64,000 nucleotides of DNA from Escherichia coli (GTDB lineage: Bacteria > Pseudomonadota > Gammaproteobacteria > Enterobacterales > Enterobacteriaceae), in NCBI RefSeq assembly GCF_017348835.2, contig NZ_CP071375.1; one strand, given 5' to 3'. The stretch's first letter is position 1. Every line of letters begins with the position of its first letter. The notes below the pieces were generated by a model. That model ran no database searches, had not been told where the DNA came from, and saw only the letters and a list, made by a program, of their open reading frames with translations. Below are positions 1-45,474 of this stretch, one piece after another. A program made the position numbers and the translations under genes.

Positions 1-370
1 GCTGGATGCACTGGAGCAGGCGTTGTGGGCCCGTCGGCCGTCCGGCACAATCCATCACAGTGATAAAGGTTCTCAGTATGTATCGCTGGCCTACACGCAG
101 CGGCTTAAGGAAGCCGGATTACTGGCATCAACAGGGAGTACTGGCGACTCGTATGACAACGCGATGGCTGAGAGCATCAATGGTCTTTACAAAGCGGAGG
201 TAATACACCGTAAGAGCTGGAAAAACCGTGCAGAAGTGGAACTGGCCACACTAACGTGGGTGGACTGGTATAACAATCGACGATTGCTGGAAAGGCTGGG
301 CCATATTCCTCCGGCAGAAGCAGAAAAAGCTTATTATGCTTCCATCGGAAATAATGATCTGGCAGCCTGA
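1..370 (+). CDS. IS3-family transposase OrfB, C-terminal portion (5' end lies outside the window)
   Basis: Translation of ORF 23-370 shows IS3-family integrase-core C-terminal features; the reading frame is open to the window start. Confidence 0.85.
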   Translation, partial: LDALEQALWARRPSGTIHHSDKGSQYVSLAYTQRLKEAGLLASTGSTGDSYDNAMAESINGLYKAEVIHRKSWKNRAEVELATLTWVDWYNNRRLLERLGHIPPAEAEKAYYASIGNNDLAA

Positions 371-412
371 GTTCACAGATAAAACACTCTCCAGGAAACC
401 CGGGGCGGTTCA
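1..412 (+). mobile_element. Right-end portion of an IS3-family insertion sequence (IS629/IS1203-like); the window starts inside the element
   Basis: ORF 23-370 is the C-terminal part of an IS3-family OrfB transposase (YDNAMAESINGLYKAEV motif region). The sequence after its stop (c. 371-412) is the reverse complement of a TGAACCGCCCCGGGTTTCCTGGAGA-type terminal inverted repeat. Element identity below family level is from memory. Confidence 0.8.
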
Positions 413-1119
413 AAATGGTGAACTTGTCCTCGATAACAGACCACCACCCCTTCTGCACCTTTAGTCACCAACAGCATGGCGATCTCATACTCTTTTGCCA
501 GGGCGCATATATCCCGATCGTTCTGTGTTTTTCCACTGATAAGTCGCCATTCTTCTTCCGAGAGCTTGACGACATCCGCCAGTTGTAGCGCCTGCCGCAA
601 ACACAAGCGGAGCAAATGCTCGTCTTGCCATAGATCTTCACGAATATTGGGATCGAAGCTGACAAAACCTCCGGCATGCCGGATCGCCGTCATCGCAGTA
701 AATGCGCTGGTACGCGAAGGCTCGGCAGACAACGCAATTGAACAGAGATGTAACCATTCGCCATGTCGCCAGCAGGGCAAGTCTGTCGTCTCTAAAAAAA
801 GATCGGCACTGGGGCGAACCATAAACGTAAATGAACGTTCCCCTTGATCGTTCAGATCGACAAGCACCGTGGATGTCCGGTGCCATTCATCTTGCTTCAG
901 ATACGTGATATCGACTCCCTCAGTTAGCAGAGTTCTTTGCATTAACGCACCAAAAGGATCATCACCGACCCGACCTATAAACCCACTTATTCCGCCTAAT
1001 CTGGCGATTCCCACCGCAACGTTAGCTGGCGCGCCGCCAGGACAAGGCAGTAGGCGCCCGTCTGATTCTGGCAAGAGATCTACTACCGCATCCCCTAAAA
1101 CCCATACTTTGGCTGACAT
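413..1119 (-). pseudogene. cscK: cscK fructokinase (PfkB family), 3'-truncated by the IS insertion
   Basis: ORF 373-1119 begins MSAKVWVLGDAVVDLLPE, the N-terminus of csc-regulon fructokinase. The native sequence ends after ...GQVHHF (about codon 235) and the remaining residues are read from IS sequence; the C-terminal PfkB DTTGAGD-type motif is missing. Confidence 0.8.
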
Positions 1120-1334
1120 TTTTTTCCCTTAAATTCATCTGACTTACGCATAGTGATAAACCTCTTTTTCGCAAAATCGTCATGGATTTACTAAAACATG
1201 CATATTCGATCACAAAATGTCATGGTTAACGTTAACATTTGTGATATTCATCGCATTTATGAAAGTAAGGGACTTTATTTTTATAAAAGTTAACGTTAAC
1301 AATTCACCAAATTTGCTTAACCAGGATGATTAAA
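1120..1334. promoter_or_regulatory. Divergent cscK / cscA control region with two identical 12-bp palindromes GTTAACGTTAAC (c. 1225-1236 and 1289-1300) and TGTGA-containing CRP-like sequence
   Basis: Two perfect copies of the palindrome GTTAACGTTAAC about 64 bp apart in an AT-rich divergent intergenic region next to a LacI-family repressor gene; candidate CscR operators. Confidence 0.55.
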
Positions 1335-2768
1335 ATGACGCAATCTCGATTGCATGCGGCGCAAAACGCACTAGCAAAACTTCATGAGCACCGGGGTAAC
1401 ACTTTCTATCCCCATTTTCACCTCGCGCCTCCTGCCGGGTGGATGAACGATCCAAACGGCCTGATCTGGTTTAACGATCGTTATCACGCGTTTTATCAAC
1501 ATCACCCGATGAGCGAACACTGGGGGCCAATGCACTGGGGACATGCCACCAGCGACGATATGATCCACTGGCAGCATGAGCCTATTGCGCTAGCGCCAGG
1601 AGACGATAATGACAAAGACGGGTGTTTTTCAGGTAGTGCTGTCGATGACAATGGTGTCCTCTCACTTATCTACACCGGACACGTCTGGCTCGATGGTGCA
1701 GGTAATGACGATGCAATTCGCGAAGTACAATGTCTGGCTACCAGTCGGGATGGTATTCATTTCGAGAAACAGGGTGTGATCCTCACTCCACCAGAAGGAA
1801 TCATGCACTTCCGCGATCCTAAAGTGTGGCGTGAAGCCGACTCATGGTGGATGGTAGTCGGGGCGAAAGACCCAGGCAACACGGGGCAGATCCTGCTTTA
1901 TCGCGGCAGTTCATTACGTGAATGGACTTTCGATCGCGTACTGGCCCACGCTGATGCGGGTGAAAGCTATATGTGGGAATGTCCGGACTTTTTCAGCCTT
2001 GGCGATCAGCATTATCTGATGTTTTCCCCGCAGGGAATGAATGCCGAGGGATACAGTTACCGAAATCGCTTTCAAAGTGGCGTAATACCCGGAATGTGGT
2101 CGCCAGGACGACTTTTTGCACAATCCGGGCATTTTACTGAACTTGATAACGGGCATGACTTTTATGCACCACAAAGCTTTGTAGCGAAGGATGGTCGGCG
2201 TATTGTTATCGGCTGGATGGATATGTGGGAATCGCCAATGCCCTCAAAACGTGAAGGCTGGGCAGGCTGCATGACGCTGGCGCGCGAGCTATCAGAGAGC
2301 AATGGCAAACTCCTACAACGCCCGGTACACGAAGCTGAGTCGTTACGCCAGCAGCATCAATCTATCTCTCCCCGCACAATCAGCAATAAATATGTTTTGC
2401 AGGAAAACGCGCAAGCAGTTGAGATTCAGTTGCAGTGGGCGCTGAAGAACAGTGATGCCGAACATTACGGATTACAGCTCGGCACTGGAATGCGGCTGTA
2501 TATTGATAACCAATCTGAGCGACTTGTTTTGTGGCGGTATTACCCACACGAGAATTTAGACGGCTACCGTAGTATTCCCCTCCCGCAGGGTGAGACGCTC
2601 GCCCTAAGGATATTTATCGATACATCATCCGTGGAAGTATTTATTAACGACGGGGAAGCGGTGATGAGTAGTCGAATCTATCCGCAGCCAGAAGAACGGG
2701 AACTGTCGCTTTATGCCTCCCACGGAGTGGCTGTGGTGCAACATGGAGCACTCTGGCAACTGGGTTAG
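1335..2768 (+). CDS. cscA: Sucrose-6-phosphate hydrolase / invertase (GH32)
   Basis: ORF 1326-2768. WMNDPNGL GH32 motif near the N-terminus. Start moved to the second ATG (MTQSRLH...) which has AGGA 8 nt upstream, giving 477 aa. Confidence 0.9.
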   Translation: MTQSRLHAAQNALAKLHEHRGNTFYPHFHLAPPAGWMNDPNGLIWFNDRYHAFYQHHPMSEHWGPMHWGHATSDDMIHWQHEPIALAPGDDNDKDGCFSGSAVDDNGVLSLIYTGHVWLDGAGNDDAIREVQCLATSRDGIHFEKQGVILTPPEGIMHFRDPKVWREADSWWMVVGAKDPGNTGQILLYRGSSLREWTFDRVLAHADAGESYMWECPDFFSLGDQHYLMFSPQGMNAEGYSYRNRFQSGVIPGMWSPGRLFAQSGHFTELDNGHDFYAPQSFVAKDGRRIVIGWMDMWESPMPSKREGWAGCMTLARELSESNGKLLQRPVHEAESLRQQHQSISPRTISNKYVLQENAQAVEIQLQWALKNSDAEHYGLQLGTGMRLYIDNQSERLVLWRYYPHENLDGYRSIPLPQGETLALRIFIDTSSVEVFINDGEAVMSSRIYPQPEERELSLYASHGVAVVQHGALWQLG

Positions 2769-2775
2769 CATAATA

Positions 2776-3771
2776 TCAGGTGGAACAACGGATCAACAGC
2801 GGGCAAGGGATCCGCGTCACACTTCCCCCTTCACGACCTTCAATAATATGCAATGCAGCTTCCCGCCCGATAATGTCATGTGGAAGCTGAATTGTGGTCA
2901 GCGGCGGTAAAAACAGATGCCCGACGCCAACCAGATTATCAAAGCCCATTACGGCGACATCCTGCGGGATACGTACCCCCTTCGCCAGGAGAACCTGATA
3001 AGCCACAAAGGCTGCGCGATCGTTACCACATATCAGAACATCAAAATCTGGTTTGCCCGATTTGAAGTGGTCATTGAGTAAACTTGCGAGATCGGTGTAG
3101 TGATCATCACCTGTTGCCATGTGAAATTGTTTCACCTCAGCCAGATCTCGTCCAGCATCACGCCAGGCCTGCTCAAATCCCTGCCGACGATACCCTGTTA
3201 CCAACGCACTTTCCGGTAGCCAGAAGCATAACGGTTGACGATAGCCCGCCGCGAGCAAATGCTGTGTTGATTCATATTGTGCAGTGTAATCATCAGGGAT
3301 ATAACTGGGTAACGCTGGGTCATCCGCCACACAGTTCGCCAATACAATATTTTCACCATACAGAGACTCAGGCAGCGTGATATGTCGCAGCCCCATTGTA
3401 GTATAGATAATGCCATCCGGACGGTGGGCAAGCAGCTGACGTGCCGCGCGGGCAGCGTCATCTTCAGAAAAAATATTGATTAAAAAACTATTCCAGCCGA
3501 ACTCGCTGGCGGTTTGCTCAATGGCAAGCAGAATATCAACAGAGAAAGGAGTGGTAGCAGTGTCCTGCGCCAGCACGGCGAGAGTCGACGGCTTACGTCC
3601 TTGAGCGCGCATCTTACGGGCGGAAAGATCAGGAACATAATTCAGGGTCTGGATTGCCTGCAATACGCGGTCACGCGTTGCAGGACGCACAGATTCTGCA
3701 TTATGCATCACCCGGGAGACTGTCATCATCGACACTCCCGCCAGGCGTGCGACATCCTTTAATGAAGCCAT
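2776..3771 (-). CDS. cscR: LacI-family sucrose operon repressor
   Basis: ORF 2776-3957 trimmed to the internal ATG giving MASLKDVARLAGVSMMTVSRV (LacI-type HTH) and a 331-aa product; convergent with cscA. Confidence 0.88.
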   Translation of the reverse strand: MASLKDVARLAGVSMMTVSRVMHNAESVRPATRDRVLQAIQTLNYVPDLSARKMRAQGRKPSTLAVLAQDTATTPFSVDILLAIEQTASEFGWNSFLINIFSEDDAARAARQLLAHRPDGIIYTTMGLRHITLPESLYGENIVLANCVADDPALPSYIPDDYTAQYESTQHLLAAGYRQPLCFWLPESALVTGYRRQGFEQAWRDAGRDLAEVKQFHMATGDDHYTDLASLLNDHFKSGKPDFDVLICGNDRAAFVAYQVLLAKGVRIPQDVAVMGFDNLVGVGHLFLPPLTTIQLPHDIIGREAALHIIEGREGGSVTRIPCPLLIRCST

Positions 3772-4001
3772 ACCCAAGCCGTTTGTCGTAAAACGGGCAC
3801 TGTAGCAGAAACAGACGTCACTGGCGAGATCCAACGCCCTATCACCTGACACGGCAATACAATAAAAAATAACAATAATTCCCGGCCAATTGTCCCCAAT
3901 TCCGCCTCTGTTCTCGCCAACGAGTAACCATATAGGCAAGTAAGTAAAACATGCCAACTGGCATCGCCAACCTGGAGAAGAAAATATAAATATGGATCAT
4001 T

Positions 4002-4220
4002 GTGCTGCCGCTGTATCCCGACATCAGCCCGGAAATTATTGCGATTGCTATCGGTTCAGGTGCAATTGGCTGCACTATCGTTACGGACTCGCTTTTCTGG
4101 CTGGTGAAGCAATATTGCGGCGCTACGCTCAATGAAACATTTAAATACTATACGACAGCGACATTTATCGCTTCAGTCGTCGCTCTGGCGGGCACATTCC
4201 TGCTGTCATTTATCATCTAA
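4002..4220 (+). pseudogene. dsdX: 3' remnant of dsdX (D-serine/gluconate-family permease), C-terminal ~72 codons only
   Basis: ORF 4002-4220 encodes a hydrophobic C-terminal segment ending ...[12 protein letters not shown], immediately upstream of dsdA as in the dsdXA operon; no N-terminal part and no dsdC are present. Confidence 0.75.
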
Positions 4221-4237
4221 GCGCAAAGAGACGTACT

Positions 4238-5566
4238 ATGGAAAACGCTAAAATGAACTCGCTCATCGCCCAGTATCCGTTGGTAAAGGATCTGGTTGCT
4301 CTTAAAGAAACCACCTGGTTTAATCCTGGCACGACCTCATTGGCTGAAGGTTTACCTTATGTTGGCCTGACCGAACAGGATGTTCAGGACGCCCATGCGC
4401 GCTTATCCCGTTTTGCACCCTATCTGACAAAAGCATTTCCTGAAACTGCTGCCACTGGGGGGATTATTGAATCAGAACTGGTTGCCATTCCGGCTATGCA
4501 AAAACGGCTGGAAAAGGAATATCAACAACCGATCAGCGGGCAACTGTTACTGAAAAAAGATAGCCATTTGCCCATTTCCGGCTCCATAAAAGCACGCGGC
4601 GGGATTTATGAAGTCCTGGCACACGCAGAAAAACTGGCTCTGGAAGCGGGGTTGCTGACGCTTGATGATGACTACAGCAAACTGCTTTCTCCGGAGTTTA
4701 AACAGTTCTTTAGCCAATACAGCATTGCTGTGGGCTCAACCGGAAATCTGGGGTTATCAATCGGCATTATGAGCGCCCGCATTGGCTTTAAGGTGACAGT
4801 GCATATGTCTGCTGATGCCCGGGCATGGAAAAAAGCGAAACTGCGCAGCCATGGCGTTACGGTCGTGGAATATGAGCAAGATTATGGTGTTGCCGTCGAG
4901 GAAGGACGTAGAGCAGCGCAGTCTGACCCGAACTGTTTCTTTATTGATGACGAAAATTCCCGCACGTTGTTCCTTGGGTATTCCGTCGCTGGCCAGCGTC
5001 TTAAAGCGCAATTTGCCGAGCAAGGTCGTATTGTCGATGCTGATAACCCTCTGTTTGTCTATCTGCCGTGTGGTGTTGGCGGTGGTCCTGGTGGCGTCGC
5101 ATTCGGGCTTAAACTGGCGTTTGGCGATCATGTTCACTGCTTTTTTGCCGAACCAACGCACTCCCCTTGTATGCTGTTAGGCGTCCATACAGGATTACAC
5201 GATCAGATTTCTGTTCAGGATATTGGTATCGACAACCTTACCGCAGCGGATGGCCTTGCAGTTGGTCGCGCATCAGGCTTTGTCGGGCGGGCAATGGAGC
5301 GTCTACTGGATGGCTTCTATACCCTTAGCGATCAAACCATGTATAACATGCTTGGCTGGCTGGCGCAGGAAGAAGGCATTCGTCTTGAACCTTCGGCACT
5401 GGCGGGTATGGCCGGGCCTCAGCGCGTGTGCGCATCAGTAAGTTACCAACAGATGCACGGTTGCAGCGCAGAACAACTGCGTAATGCCACTCATCTGGTG
5501 TGGGCGACGGGAGGTGGAATGGTGCCGGAAGAAGAGATGGAGCAATATCTGGCAAAAGGCCGCTAA
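4238..5566 (+). CDS. dsdA: D-serine dehydratase (PLP-dependent)
   Basis: 442-aa ORF starting [15 protein letters not shown] with a PLP-lysine region (SGSIKARGG); matches DsdA length and sequence. Confidence 0.95.
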
Positions 5567-5673
5567 TTAATTTTCAATTCAGCATCGCCATCCTTTCCCT
5601 GGATGAGCGATGCTGCCGATGGCGCAGACTTAAGATCCCCGGTCTTACCCGCTATAACCCCCTGCTTTTACCA

Positions 5674-7212
5674 TCACCCAACGCCTTTCGCTGTAAACGG
5701 CGGTTTCGCAAACCAAACCAAAACCGTAAGTAAGATAAAAGCAATAGCCGCCATACGGAAAATCTCATTTGCAGAAATAGAAAGTGACTGCTGGGTTATT
5801 TCATTATTAATTTCATTAAGAACTCCTGAAAGCGAACCATAGTATTTATCCATAATTTGTGACGATGAATTAAACACGGGGTTAAATTGATCGATGGTTG
5901 CTGTCAACTGACTATGGTGTAACGATTCGCGTCGTCCCCACAGCGTCATTGTCAACGACGTACCAACTGATCCTGACAAGGTACGAAAAAAATTACTCAT
6001 ACTCGAGGCATTGGCAAATTTATTATCTGGCAACCCTGAAAACGAAATCGTTGTTAAGGGTAAAAAGAAACAGGCAACGGCGAATCCCTGGAAAAACTGT
6101 GGCAAAATGATGCCTGTAAAATCAATCGTTGGCATAAATGTCACAGAACGCCAGTAATAGCAAACCGCATACATCAAAAAACTAAATGTCACTAACAACC
6201 GCATGTCTATTTTGTTGCCATAACGTCCTATCAAAGGTGAAATTAATAGTGGCATGATGCCGATGGGCGCATAAGCAAGCCCAGCCCAAATCGCATTATA
6301 CCCCATTGTTTCCTGGAGGAACTGCGGCATAAGGACTATCGCTCCAGAGTAAAATAAATACGCGCATGTGATACTCACAATACCAATGGTGAAATTACGG
6401 GACTTAAACAAACTGAGATCAAGAATCGGGTTCTCTGAGGTTGACTCCCAAATGACTAAAGAGATCAGAGAAATAACTGATACTACTGTTAATATTATTA
6501 TTGTACTCGAGTTGAACCAATCCAGATCGCGCCCTTTATCAAGCATAATTTGCAAGCCACCAACACCAAGCACTAACAGGGTCAGTCCTGGTAGATTCAT
6601 TTTGACCGGTGAAGTCTCAGTTTCTCTTCCTTTAAGTAAGGTTAAGCATAATGTCAGGACGATAACCCCCATAGGGACATTGATTAAAAATATCCAACCC
6701 CAGCTAAAGTTATCACAAATATAACCGCCCAATATCGGCCCACATATCGGAGCGATAATCACGGTCATTGACCATAATGCCAGAGCAAATGTTCTTTTTT
6801 CTGGTGGATAATTCCTTAATAATAAACTCTGTGACAGTGGAATTAACGGCCCTGCCATTAACCCCTGAACGACTCTAAAAAATATCAGCACATCAAGATT
6901 GGTCGATAAACTACACATTAAGGAAGACAGCGAAAAAAAAGTGACTGAAAGTAAAAATAACCTTAATTCGCCTATTCTTTGTGCCAGCCTGCCAGTAACA
7001 GGGATCGCAATGGCATTTGCTACGCCAAACGAGGTGATAACCCAGGTACCTTCGTCTGTTGATGCTCCCAGAAAGCCAGATATTGTCGGTATTGCGACGT
7101 TAGAAATAGTGGAATCCAACATTTGCATAAATGTCGCTAATGACAATGCAATAGTGACGCACCATAACGTCCCACCGGTTAATGGTGCCGGAGTTGATTT
7201 AGTGATTGCCAT
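5674..7212 (-). CDS. emrY: MFS multidrug efflux permease (EmrB paralogue)
   Basis: 512-aa polytopic membrane ORF; operon partner of emrK, with stop/start overlap at 7212. Confidence 0.93.
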   Translation of the reverse strand: MAITKSTPAPLTGGTLWCVTIALSLATFMQMLDSTISNVAIPTISGFLGASTDEGTWVITSFGVANAIAIPVTGRLAQRIGELRLFLLSVTFFSLSSLMCSLSTNLDVLIFFRVVQGLMAGPLIPLSQSLLLRNYPPEKRTFALALWSMTVIIAPICGPILGGYICDNFSWGWIFLINVPMGVIVLTLCLTLLKGRETETSPVKMNLPGLTLLVLGVGGLQIMLDKGRDLDWFNSSTIIILTVVSVISLISLVIWESTSENPILDLSLFKSRNFTIGIVSITCAYLFYSGAIVLMPQFLQETMGYNAIWAGLAYAPIGIMPLLISPLIGRYGNKIDMRLLVTFSFLMYAVCYYWRSVTFMPTIDFTGIILPQFFQGFAVACFFLPLTTISFSGLPDNKFANASSMSNFFRTLSGSVGTSLTMTLWGRRESLHHSQLTATIDQFNPVFNSSSQIMDKYYGSLSGVLNEINNEITQQSLSISANEIFRMAAIAFILLTVLVWFAKPPFTAKGVG

Positions 7213-22091: not shown

Positions 22092-23330
22092 TTATTCCGC
22101 GTTTTCGTGAATATGTTTGCTGCTGGCGGGTAGTAAACCGTCGGCACGGAACATCGCTTTAATCCCACGAATCGCCTGACGAATACGGTCGCGGTTTTCA
22201 ATCAGTGCAAAGCGCACATGCGTATCACCATAGTCGCCAAAGCCGATCCCCGGCGAGACACAAACCTTCGCTTCGTTAAGTAATTTCTTGGCAAACTCCA
22301 GCGAGCCCATGGCAGCGTAAGGTTCAGGGATTTTCGCCCAGACATACATCGAAGCCTTCGGCATTTCGACCATCCAGCCCGCTTCATGCAGCCCTTTAAC
22401 CAATACATCACGGCGGCGTTTGTACTGTTCGGCAATGTCGCGCACGCACTGTTGATCGCCCTCGAGTGCCGCAATCGCCGCCACCTGCAACGGCGTAAAG
22501 GTGCCGTAATCGTGATAGCTTTTAATACGTGCCAGGACGCTGACCAGCGTTTTGTTGCCAACCATAAAGCCGATACGCCAGCCCGCCATGTTGTAGCTTT
22601 TCGACAGCGTAAAGAACTCGACCGCCACATCGCATGCACCCGGCACCTGCATGATTGACGGCGCTTTCCAGCCATCGTAGACGATATCGGCATAGGCCAG
22701 GTCATGGACCACCAGCACATCGTAGCGTTTCGCCAGCGCCACAACCTTTTCGAAGAACTCCAGTTCCACGCATTGCGCGGTTGGGTTCGACGGGAAGCCG
22801 AGGATCATCATCTTCGGTTTCGGATAACTTTCACGAATGGCGCGCTCCAGTTCGTTGAAGAAATCGACACCTTCCACCAGCGGCACTGAGCGTACCTGAG
22901 CCCCGGCAATCACCGCGCCGTAAATATGAATGGGGTAACTTGGATTCGGCACCAGCACTGTGTCACCGTGATCCAGTGTCGCCAGCATCAGATGCGCCAG
23001 GCCCTCTTTCGAACCAATAGTGACGATGGCTTCTGATTCCGGGTCGATTTCAACGTCGTAGCGATCCTGATACCAGCGGGAAATGGCGCGACGTAGCCGC
23101 GGAATACCGCGTGAAGTGGAGTAACCATGCGTGTCCGGGCGCTGGGCCACAGTACATAATTTTTCGACGATATGCGGCGGAGTCGCACCGTCCGGGTTAC
23201 CCATACTGAAATCGATAATATCTTCGCCGCGCCGACGCGCAGCCATTTTCAGTTCAGCGGTAATGTTAAAAACATAGGGCGGGAGACGATCAATGCGCGT
23301 AAAGCGACGTTCAGGGCGAGTGTCAGCCAT
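22092..23330 (-). CDS. alaC: Glutamate-pyruvate aminotransferase (PLP-dependent, class I)
   Basis: 412-aa ORF with aminotransferase class I signature (...[12 protein letters not shown]...). Confidence 0.93.
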
Positions 23331-39290: not shown

Positions 39291-39322
39291 AAAAAAGCCG
39301 GGGATAATTCCCCGGTTTTTTT
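39291..39322. terminator. Bidirectional intrinsic terminator between nupC and pdeA
   Basis: AAAAAAGCCGGGGATAATTCCCCGGTTTTTTT hairpin with flanking A/T runs. Confidence 0.8.
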
Positions 39323-45045: not shown

Positions 45046-45077
45046 CTATCTGCGATTTGTAAGATTGATTTTTCTTC

Positions 45078-45104
45078 TCAAGTTCCTTGTTCTTCTACCG
45101 ATAT
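45078..45104 (+). promoter_or_regulatory. Candidate sigma-28 (FliA)-type promoter upstream of the FlxA-like ORF (TCAAGTTC-N11-ACCGATAT)
   Basis: Matches the class 3 flagellar promoter consensus TAAAGTTT-N11-GCCGATAA at 6/8 plus 6/8 positions with exact 11-bp spacing, about 30 bp upstream of the ATG. Confidence 0.45.
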
Positions 45105-45132
45105 TACCTCGTACAGTGACGAGGACTGAACA

Positions 45133-45474
45133 ATGGCCACTATCTCTTCAACTTCAATTCCTTCCATACAAACACAGAGTAGTAACAGGGCATCACAAGG
45201 TAGCGATGTTGCTTCACAAATCGCGCGGATAAGTCAGCAAATCATCAAACTCACTCAACAAATTAAAGAGATTGTAGACACTAGCGGCAGTGCTGAAGAC
45301 AAGCAAAAACAGGCCGAATTGATTCAACAGCAAATCACCCTACTGGAAACACAACTGGCGCAGTTGCAGAGACAGCAGGCAGAAAAGGCGCAGGAGAAAG
45401 AGCAGCGTTTGTCTCTGAATGTATCCCTTCTAAATCCTGTTGAAAATACGACTCATATCGATATCTATATCTGA
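45133..45474 (+). CDS. Small coiled-coil protein, FlxA-like family (113 aa)
   Basis: ATG preceded by GAGGA at about 8 nt; Ser/Thr/Gln-rich N-terminus, central Q/K/E-rich heptad coiled coil (…[35 protein letters not shown]…) and C-terminal …THIDIYI, resembling FlxA-type proteins. The 3' end overlaps the yfeR stop by 10 nt. Family assignment is from memory. Confidence 0.6.

Follow-up and report, generated by a model that had tools for sequence, protein, structure and literature searches.

The 64,000-nt stretch of Escherichia coli DNA analyzed here (contig NZ_CP071375.1 of assembly GCF_017348835.2; its full length is referred to as the window) begins inside an insertion sequence (IS) that interrupts cscK, the fructokinase gene of a sucrose (csc) island located next to the D-serine gene dsdA. 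The following features make up the interrupted gene and its junction with the IS.

1-412, plus strand: right-hand part (nt 899-1310 of 1310 bp) of an IS629/IS1203-type element of the IS3 family
2-370, plus strand: C-terminal 108 residues of the transposase orfB (NCBIfam NF033516, profile positions 262-369 of 369, E 3.5e-37)
388-412, plus strand: 25-bp right inverted repeat (IRR), ending ...GGTTCA at 412, with the final CA
413-415, no strand: right copy of the target-site duplication AAA, cscK nt 705-707, from comparison with the junction in strain F2_81
413-1119, minus strand: 5′ fragment of cscK, native residues 1-236 (NCBIfam NF006957, profile positions 2-239 of 302)

The initial annotation of this DNA had described a cscK gene cut by the inverted repeat of an IS3-family element after about 235 N-terminal codons, with the transposase gene running off the window start. 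Both statements hold, the number of native residues being 236 and the transposase fragment being the NF033516 C-terminus at 2-370. The orfB stop codon lies at 368-370, the sequence closing the terminal inverted repeat at 412 reads ...CCGGGGCGGTTCA, and positions 1-412 carry the single IS end of that type in the window. The cscK open reading frame (ORF; 373-1119) encodes 248 aa, of which the first 236 are native and run through ...GQVHHF, while the remaining 12 are encoded by the IS up to a stop codon at 373-375. Whether the residues after HHF might be native CscK had been left open; comparison with intact CscK identifies them as IS-derived, since the 12 foreign residues are EPPRVSWRVFYL and native CscK has AGMSVNCVDSTGAGD in their place.

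The truncated CscK is without its C-terminal 68 residues (237-304), including the GAGD motif at 248-251, and its score against NF006957 is 397.8, under that profile's cutoff of 450. In the PfkB/ribokinase family the GAGD motif provides the catalytic aspartate and the anion hole. Because this motif is lost, the truncated protein should be inactive, making the allele a predicted null.

Comparison of window positions 1-4300 with a set of 5,426 complete E. coli genomes (megablast) singled out strain PE164, whose chromosome (NZ_CP114128.1) is alone in matching at 100%. Over the entire window, 63,998 of the 64,000 bases are identical to PE164, with mismatches at 22537 and 39916 alone; the former (A in the window, G in PE164) falls inside alaC and the latter (C in the window, G in PE164) inside pdeA. 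The window may represent a sister isolate or a different version of the assembly. PE164 is a pig isolate of serotype O108:H9, described as a hybrid of atypical enteropathogenic and extraintestinal pathogenic E. coli (aEPEC/ExPEC) and positive for the type III secretion system (PMC12233904) and for the locus of enterocyte effacement (LEE). All genes at the locus share at least 98% of their nucleotides with E. coli genes that have been characterised and, given the 100% identity to a public complete genome, a chance match would be impossible. We took the sequence 5′ of window position 1 from the PE164 record (locus L001), along with the corresponding locus of F2_81 (L002).

In PE164 the element is present in full (L001 11103-12412, 1310 bp) with TG...CA ends, and both orfA and orfB are open. 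RefSeq annotates in it a programmed frameshift and an AL1L pseudoknot. The complete element thus has a DDE transposase made from two overlapping frames via −1 frameshifting, of which the window holds the orfB C-terminus alone. The left inverted repeat (IRL) is TGAACCGCCCCGGAAATCCTGGAGA, and the IRR is its imperfect complement, with 22 of 25 positions matching. Outward from the window, the PE164 chromosome carries the rest of the IS, a 216-nt cscK 3′ pseudogene, an intact cscB, a DUF4942 remnant and a tRNA-Arg gene (argW). RefSeq already annotates the two parts of cscK as pseudogenes on either side of an IS3-family transposase gene, the 5′ part being marked as 'missing C-terminus'.

The island of F2_81, a strain from an Australian pig, is 100% identical to that of PE164, with the IS missing from cscK. 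A base-by-base comparison with this uninterrupted allele shows that both PE164 flanks are collinear with it and that AAA stands on each side of the IS; the left copy, at L001 11100-11102, precedes window position 1. The IS junction and the duplication, whose placement had been left to alignment with an uninterrupted csc region, are in this way assigned to cscK nt 705-707. Because the cscK remnant and the intact cscB follow directly beyond the IS, and AAA is found at both ends, the event is shown to be a simple transposition with no deletion. The absence of the IS from cscK of F2_81 suggests that the insertion is recent.

The initial annotation had offered two possibilities for the sequence upstream of the window, a simple insertion or a deletion. 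In the second, the IS would mark the breakpoint of a deletion or rearrangement, the rest of cscK and cscB being lost. The window alone cannot decide against this possibility, and deletions of this kind do exist: 2014C-3011, SMN013SH2, SMN152SH1 and OkiPb01679 each have an incomplete IS629-type element that borders cscK nt 700 on one side and prophage DNA on the other, and they have no cscB. PE164, however, whose two substitutions relative to the window lie far from the locus, has the complete 1310-bp IS with AAA on both sides, the exact continuation of cscK and the intact cscB, which makes a deletion very improbable.

The element resembles IS629/IS1203, the dominant IS of E. coli O157:H7, in its length of 1310 bp, its TG...CA ends, its 25-bp imperfect inverted repeats, its programmed frameshift between orfA and orfB and its 3-bp target duplication. 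The length of the AAA duplication agrees with the 3-4 bp reported for IS629 target duplications (PMC3271280); a sequence-specific target is reportedly lacking for IS629 (PMC3271280). At the nucleotide level the PE164 element is 96.1% identical (51 substitutions) to a copy in O157:H7 NE92 that RefSeq labels IS1203, and 98.6% identical to a copy in SMN197SH3. Judged by these genome copies, it appears to be a slightly divergent isoform; RefSeq names it 'IS3 family transposase' and not IS1203.

A further ∼31 matches to the right end of the IS were found on the PE164 chromosome. On the 41.7-kb plasmid pPE164, in which many genes are frameshifted, IS629-type copies (L009 21078-22291 and 32224-33437) split umuC and sit among disrupted tra genes. 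With this number of chromosomal matches plus the plasmid copies, the IS looks expanded and active in PE164. The same abundance could be turned into an argument that the insertion is an assembly artefact, with an IS copy misplaced into cscK, as repeats are a classic source of misassembly. Still, a perfect 3-bp duplication with collinear flanks is what genuine transposition leaves behind, the right-hand junction is the same in the window as in the RefSeq record, and equivalent insertions with duplications of their own are present in independently assembled genomes (see below). We therefore consider an artefact barely credible.

Beyond cscK, as read from the ORFs and NCBIfam profiles of window positions 1-6000, the locus comprises the remainder of the csc island within the window and what is left of the dsd genes.

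1120-1334, no strand: divergent control region between cscKB and cscA, with two CscR operator candidates
1335-2768, plus strand: cscA, sucrose hydrolase (invertase, GH32), intact, 477 aa (TIGR01322, RefSeq cscA)
2776-3771, minus strand: cscR, LacI-family csc repressor, intact, 331 aa (LacI-family profile matches, RefSeq)
3772-4002, no strand: region 5′ of cscR and right-hand boundary of the csc island (blastn against K-12 dsdC-dsdX-dsdA)
4003-4220, plus strand: dsdX 3′ remnant, last 72 codons, pseudogene (NF007395, profile positions 374-445 of 445; K-12 alignment)
4238-5566, plus strand: dsdA, D-serine ammonia-lyase, intact, 442 aa (TIGR02035, 810 bits)

The cscA product scores 477.4 bits against TIGR01322 (cutoff 356.4) and differs from the O157:H7 protein at five residues; CscR differs from its O157:H7 counterpart at a single residue. 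Within the control region a 12-bp palindrome, GTTAACGTTAAC, occurs exactly at 1225-1236 and again at 1289-1300, with 0 occurrences expected by chance. Palindromes of this sequence have been proposed as the operators of CscR (Jahreis 2002, cited through PMC11251922 and PMC3938415). The PE164 locus shares with the csc regulon of EC3132, W and EDL933 the genes, their order and their orientation (cscB and cscK divergent from cscA, cscR convergent on cscA), as well as the two operators, the argW-dsdA site and the truncated dsdX beside an intact dsdA. Its cscK is 98-99% identical at the nucleotide level to the copies of O157:H7, KO11FL (a W derivative) and ATCC 8739. It differs from the csc regulon of EC3132, W and EDL933 in having cscK split by an IS at nt 705-707.

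On the other side of the IS, PE164 cscB encodes 415 aa, is intact with no internal stops, and its protein is identical to CscB of F2_81. A 71-bp spacer separates cscK from cscB, and the tRNA-Arg gene is located ∼440 bp past cscB. The argW site itself differs between the two pig strains despite their close relatedness: just outside its csc island, F2_81 carries a lambdoid prophage with bet, exo, gam, kil, cIII and torI (L002 1-6000), whereas in PE164 (L001 9057-9500) the tRNA-Arg is followed by the DUF4942 remnant and nothing more.

At the right-hand boundary, homology to K-12 restarts at window position 4003, corresponding to dsdX nt 1121 (blastn), so that dsdX codons 1-373 are missing. The remnant ORF spans 4002-4220 on the plus strand, its own start codon and promoter are absent, and RefSeq labels it 'missing N-terminus'. 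No dsdC was found within the window, either among its ORFs or by alignment to the K-12 region. The locus thus has neither a full-length dsdX permease gene nor a dsdC LysR-type activator gene, while dsdA is complete, its product differing from K-12 DsdA at seven residues. The earlier description of a csc island at dsdA in place of dsdC-dsdX is borne out by the gene profiles, the K-12 alignment and the PE164 annotation, and the loss of dsdC, the ∼72 remaining dsdX codons and the intact dsdA, likewise described there, are supported by the NF007395 and TIGR02035 matches.

The initial annotation had also allowed that an intact cscK, or dsdC and dsdX, might be located elsewhere in the genome. When a chimeric query made of csc and the K-12 dsdC/dsdX 5′ region was compared with the PE164 chromosome, the csc segment alone matched; at the sensitivity of megablast, dsdC, the dsdX 5′ region and a further copy of csc, which could have supplied an intact cscK, were all undetected there. 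The annotation of pPE164 contains no dsdC, dsdX, csc or scr genes.

We consider it highly probable that the locus arose by a recent simple IS insertion into cscK of the classical csc island. In a LEE-positive O108:H9 isolate from a pig, either PE164 or a strain nearly identical to it, an IS629/IS1203-type element would have recently transposed into codon 236 of cscK in the chromosomal island. That island, with cscB-cscK, cscA and cscR, is the classical one found between argW and dsdA, where it took the place of dsdC and of dsdX codons 1-373. The same arrangement is known from EDL933, where csc took the place of dsdC and truncated dsdX (PMC7486766). The locus is real and already annotated publicly, and its kind is already known from the presence of csc at dsdA, from the mutual exclusivity of csc and D-serine utilization and from IS-hit csc loci in Shigella.

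The effect of the insertion on sucrose use is predicted to come from cscB more than from cscK. Loss of fructokinase by itself should cost little, because strain W secretes fructose when its cscK is knocked out and because strains with a cscK frameshift ferment sucrose once cscB reverts: in Shiga toxin-producing E. coli (STEC) CC119, reversion of a cscB frameshift restores fermentation despite the remaining cscK frameshift (PMC10132054). A literature search gave no direct statement that cscK is 'not essential', and we relied on indirect statements such as these. It has also been described that cscA alone can give a sucrose-positive phenotype, and that all three genes are needed for the maximal growth rate. 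On the other hand, growth by way of csc requires both cscB and cscA, and the cscB gene directly follows cscK in the operon that they share (PMC3938415).

In PE164 the IS cuts cscB off from its promoter. Ahead of cscB now lie the 1.3-kb IS in antisense and the 216-nt cscK remnant, together ∼1.5 kb of RNA, plus the 71-bp spacer, all untranslated, and transcriptional polarity probably keeps cscB expression low. No gene for a sucrose phosphotransferase system (PTS) of the scrA type was found on the PE164 chromosome (chimeric query) or on the plasmid (annotation), and isolates with csc that do not have scr grow only slowly on sucrose (PMC11251922). Given that CscB is essential, that the insertion is likely to be polar and that a PTS of the scrA type was not found, a PE164-type strain is predicted either not to use sucrose or to grow on it very slowly. 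In this mechanism CscK would be null and cscB would lie behind IS antisense RNA and the cscK remnant, with polarity leaving little growth on sucrose. The earlier proposal that loss of fructokinase, with polar or deletion effects on cscB, could compromise sucrose use needs corresponding adjustment: fructokinase is lost, with little expected effect alone; cscB is not deleted; it is transcriptionally downstream and not 'upstream' of cscK; and polarity stays as a probable consequence.

For D-serine, the expectation comes from enterohaemorrhagic E. coli (EHEC). Without DsdC the dsd system is non-functional, and D-serine is toxic in EHEC (PMC7486766). EHEC still imports D-serine; mutants tolerant to it block uptake, with CycA among the implicated transporters, and SstT has been reported too (PMC7486766). 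In genotype PE164 is structurally no different from EHEC with a silent dsdA, which likewise has no dsdC and a truncated dsdX. By analogy with EHEC, a PE164-type strain may be expected to be D-serine-sensitive and unable to use D-serine, because dsdA would be silent without DsdC while CycA would still import D-serine. The absence of DsdC and DsdX stated in the initial annotation stands; the 'poor uptake' deduced from it does not, as CycA and, reportedly, SstT still import the amino acid (PMC7486766).

Several points weigh against the interpretation given above. The structure upstream of position 1 comes from the PE164 record, and the near-identity of the two sequences strongly suggests that the window's own genome shares it. 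The paper describing PE164 (PMC12233904) mentions neither sucrose nor D-serine. The tests for absent genes lose sensitivity below ∼85% nucleotide identity in the case of dsdC and dsdX (megablast) and below ∼65-70% in the case of scrA. Finally, some cscB expression could persist through transcription that crosses the IS, or from a promoter that escaped recognition within the left end of the IS or the 71-bp spacer.

Among the 5,426 complete genomes, 2,662 carry cscK, which is near full length in one piece in 2,639 and partial or split in 23. The exact cscK::IS junction of PE164 is present in one genome, PE164 alone. At least four more IS629-type insertions, each an event of its own, were found at the csc locus of other lineages, as listed below.

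cscK nt 625-628: IS629-type insertion with duplication CTTT, in eight O157:H7 genomes
cscK nt 628-630: IS629-type insertion with duplication CTC, in SMN197SH3
cscK nt 700: IS right end abutting this position, left side deleted into prophage, in 2014C-3011, SMN013SH2, SMN152SH1, OkiPb01679 and SMN197SH3 (n = 5)
cscK-cscA spacer, equivalent to window 1158-1161: IS629-type insertion with duplication AAAC, in CEC13091

In SMN197SH3, 74 bp of cscK are left between the IS end at nt 700 and the second IS of this strain. The insertions in the O157:H7 cattle isolates and in the SMN and 2014C strains are located 5-80 bp from that of PE164. IS-inactivated csc loci of Shigella are similar to the one described here, with cscK or cscB interrupted by an IS and cscA and cscR intact (PMC11251922). 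The STEC and Shigella insertions are, however, independent events with other junctions and duplications, and the 2014C-3011 group lost cscB whereas PE164 kept it. In 2014C-3011, a member of the lineage with the IS-mediated cscB deletion, dsdA is annotated as frameshifted (L004 from 7932), versus the intact dsdA of PE164; judging from these annotations, both catabolic functions appear to be decaying at the 2014C-3011 locus, unlike in PE164.

Counting PE164, csc has been hit five times: four insertions fall in an 83-bp part of cscK (nt 625-707), one in the cscK-cscA control region, and two pairs of sites are at most 7 bp apart. A rough estimate puts the chance of finding two pairs this close at ∼1e-3 for four sites placed at random over 915 bp. 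In all five insertions the transposase gene points toward cscA, an orientation that is partly a search artefact. We considered whether this orientation bias is real and rejected it, as opposite-orientation insertions would not rank top in a search that joins same-strand pieces. Targeting of the IS to a sequence resembling its inverted repeat was rejected as well: TGAAC occurs 6 nt from the PE164 insertion point, and a similarity of five bases is too weak.

These repeated insertions bear on two further proposals. IS629-family elements may insert preferentially into the csc locus, chiefly into cscK nt 625-707, making it a regional hot spot, or LEE-positive and Shiga-toxin E. coli may repeatedly have been selected for silencing of cscKB; selection is less likely than a regional insertion preference. 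Weighing against both are the rarity of cscK disruption (23 of 2,662), the non-specific target of IS629 and the shared orientation being partly an artefact, and we regard the proposal as unlikely.

The insertion could also be seen as adaptive rewiring, in which outward or read-through transcription from the IS alters expression of cscA, cscB or dsdA, or in which cscKB silencing is selected in attaching-effacing or Shiga-toxin lineages. The five independent insertions, with the transposase always toward cscA and dsdA, fit such a scheme, as does the finding that a silent dsdA is reawakened by deletions that permit read-through from cscAp, for example when cscR is deleted (PMC7486766). In PE164, though, cscR on the opposite strand still separates cscA from dsdA, and neither the repressor nor either of its operators is damaged. 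A consensus promoter and terminator scan of the IS and the csc junctions gave no promoter-like site and thus no outward promoter, although the same scan missed the known csc promoters and is uninformative on a promoter for cscB. The orientation bias is in part ascertainment, since the search joins same-strand pieces only, and four of four in the same direction is not significant. Disruption of cscK in just 23 of the genomes that carry it argues against strong selection. Overall, rewiring seems improbable, and a recent simple insertion into the classical island is the explanation that we retain.

Away from the csc and dsd genes, two further differences from K-12 were noted. At ∼45060-45463, the K-12 genes xapR-xapB-xapA-yfeN (4.4 kb, between lysV and yfeR) are missing and ∼0.4 kb with a small FlxA-like ORF is present instead; this replacement arrangement is found in 1,306 of the 5,426 complete genomes and is a common polymorphism. 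In the nupC-pdeA spacer (∼39301-39312) the site is empty, the IS186C copy of K-12 being missing.

The value of these observations beyond strain-level annotation is very small. Still, the two predicted phenotypes, sucrose-negative or very slow growth and D-serine sensitivity, could be diagnostic markers for the porcine O108:H9 aEPEC/ExPEC hybrid lineage. An intact dsdCXA locus was reported in just 5.7% of LEE-positive isolates (PMC7486766). As PE164 is LEE-positive, it fits the rule that LEE carriers are without a working dsdCXA, and the locus adds one further example of a LEE-positive E. coli of this kind.

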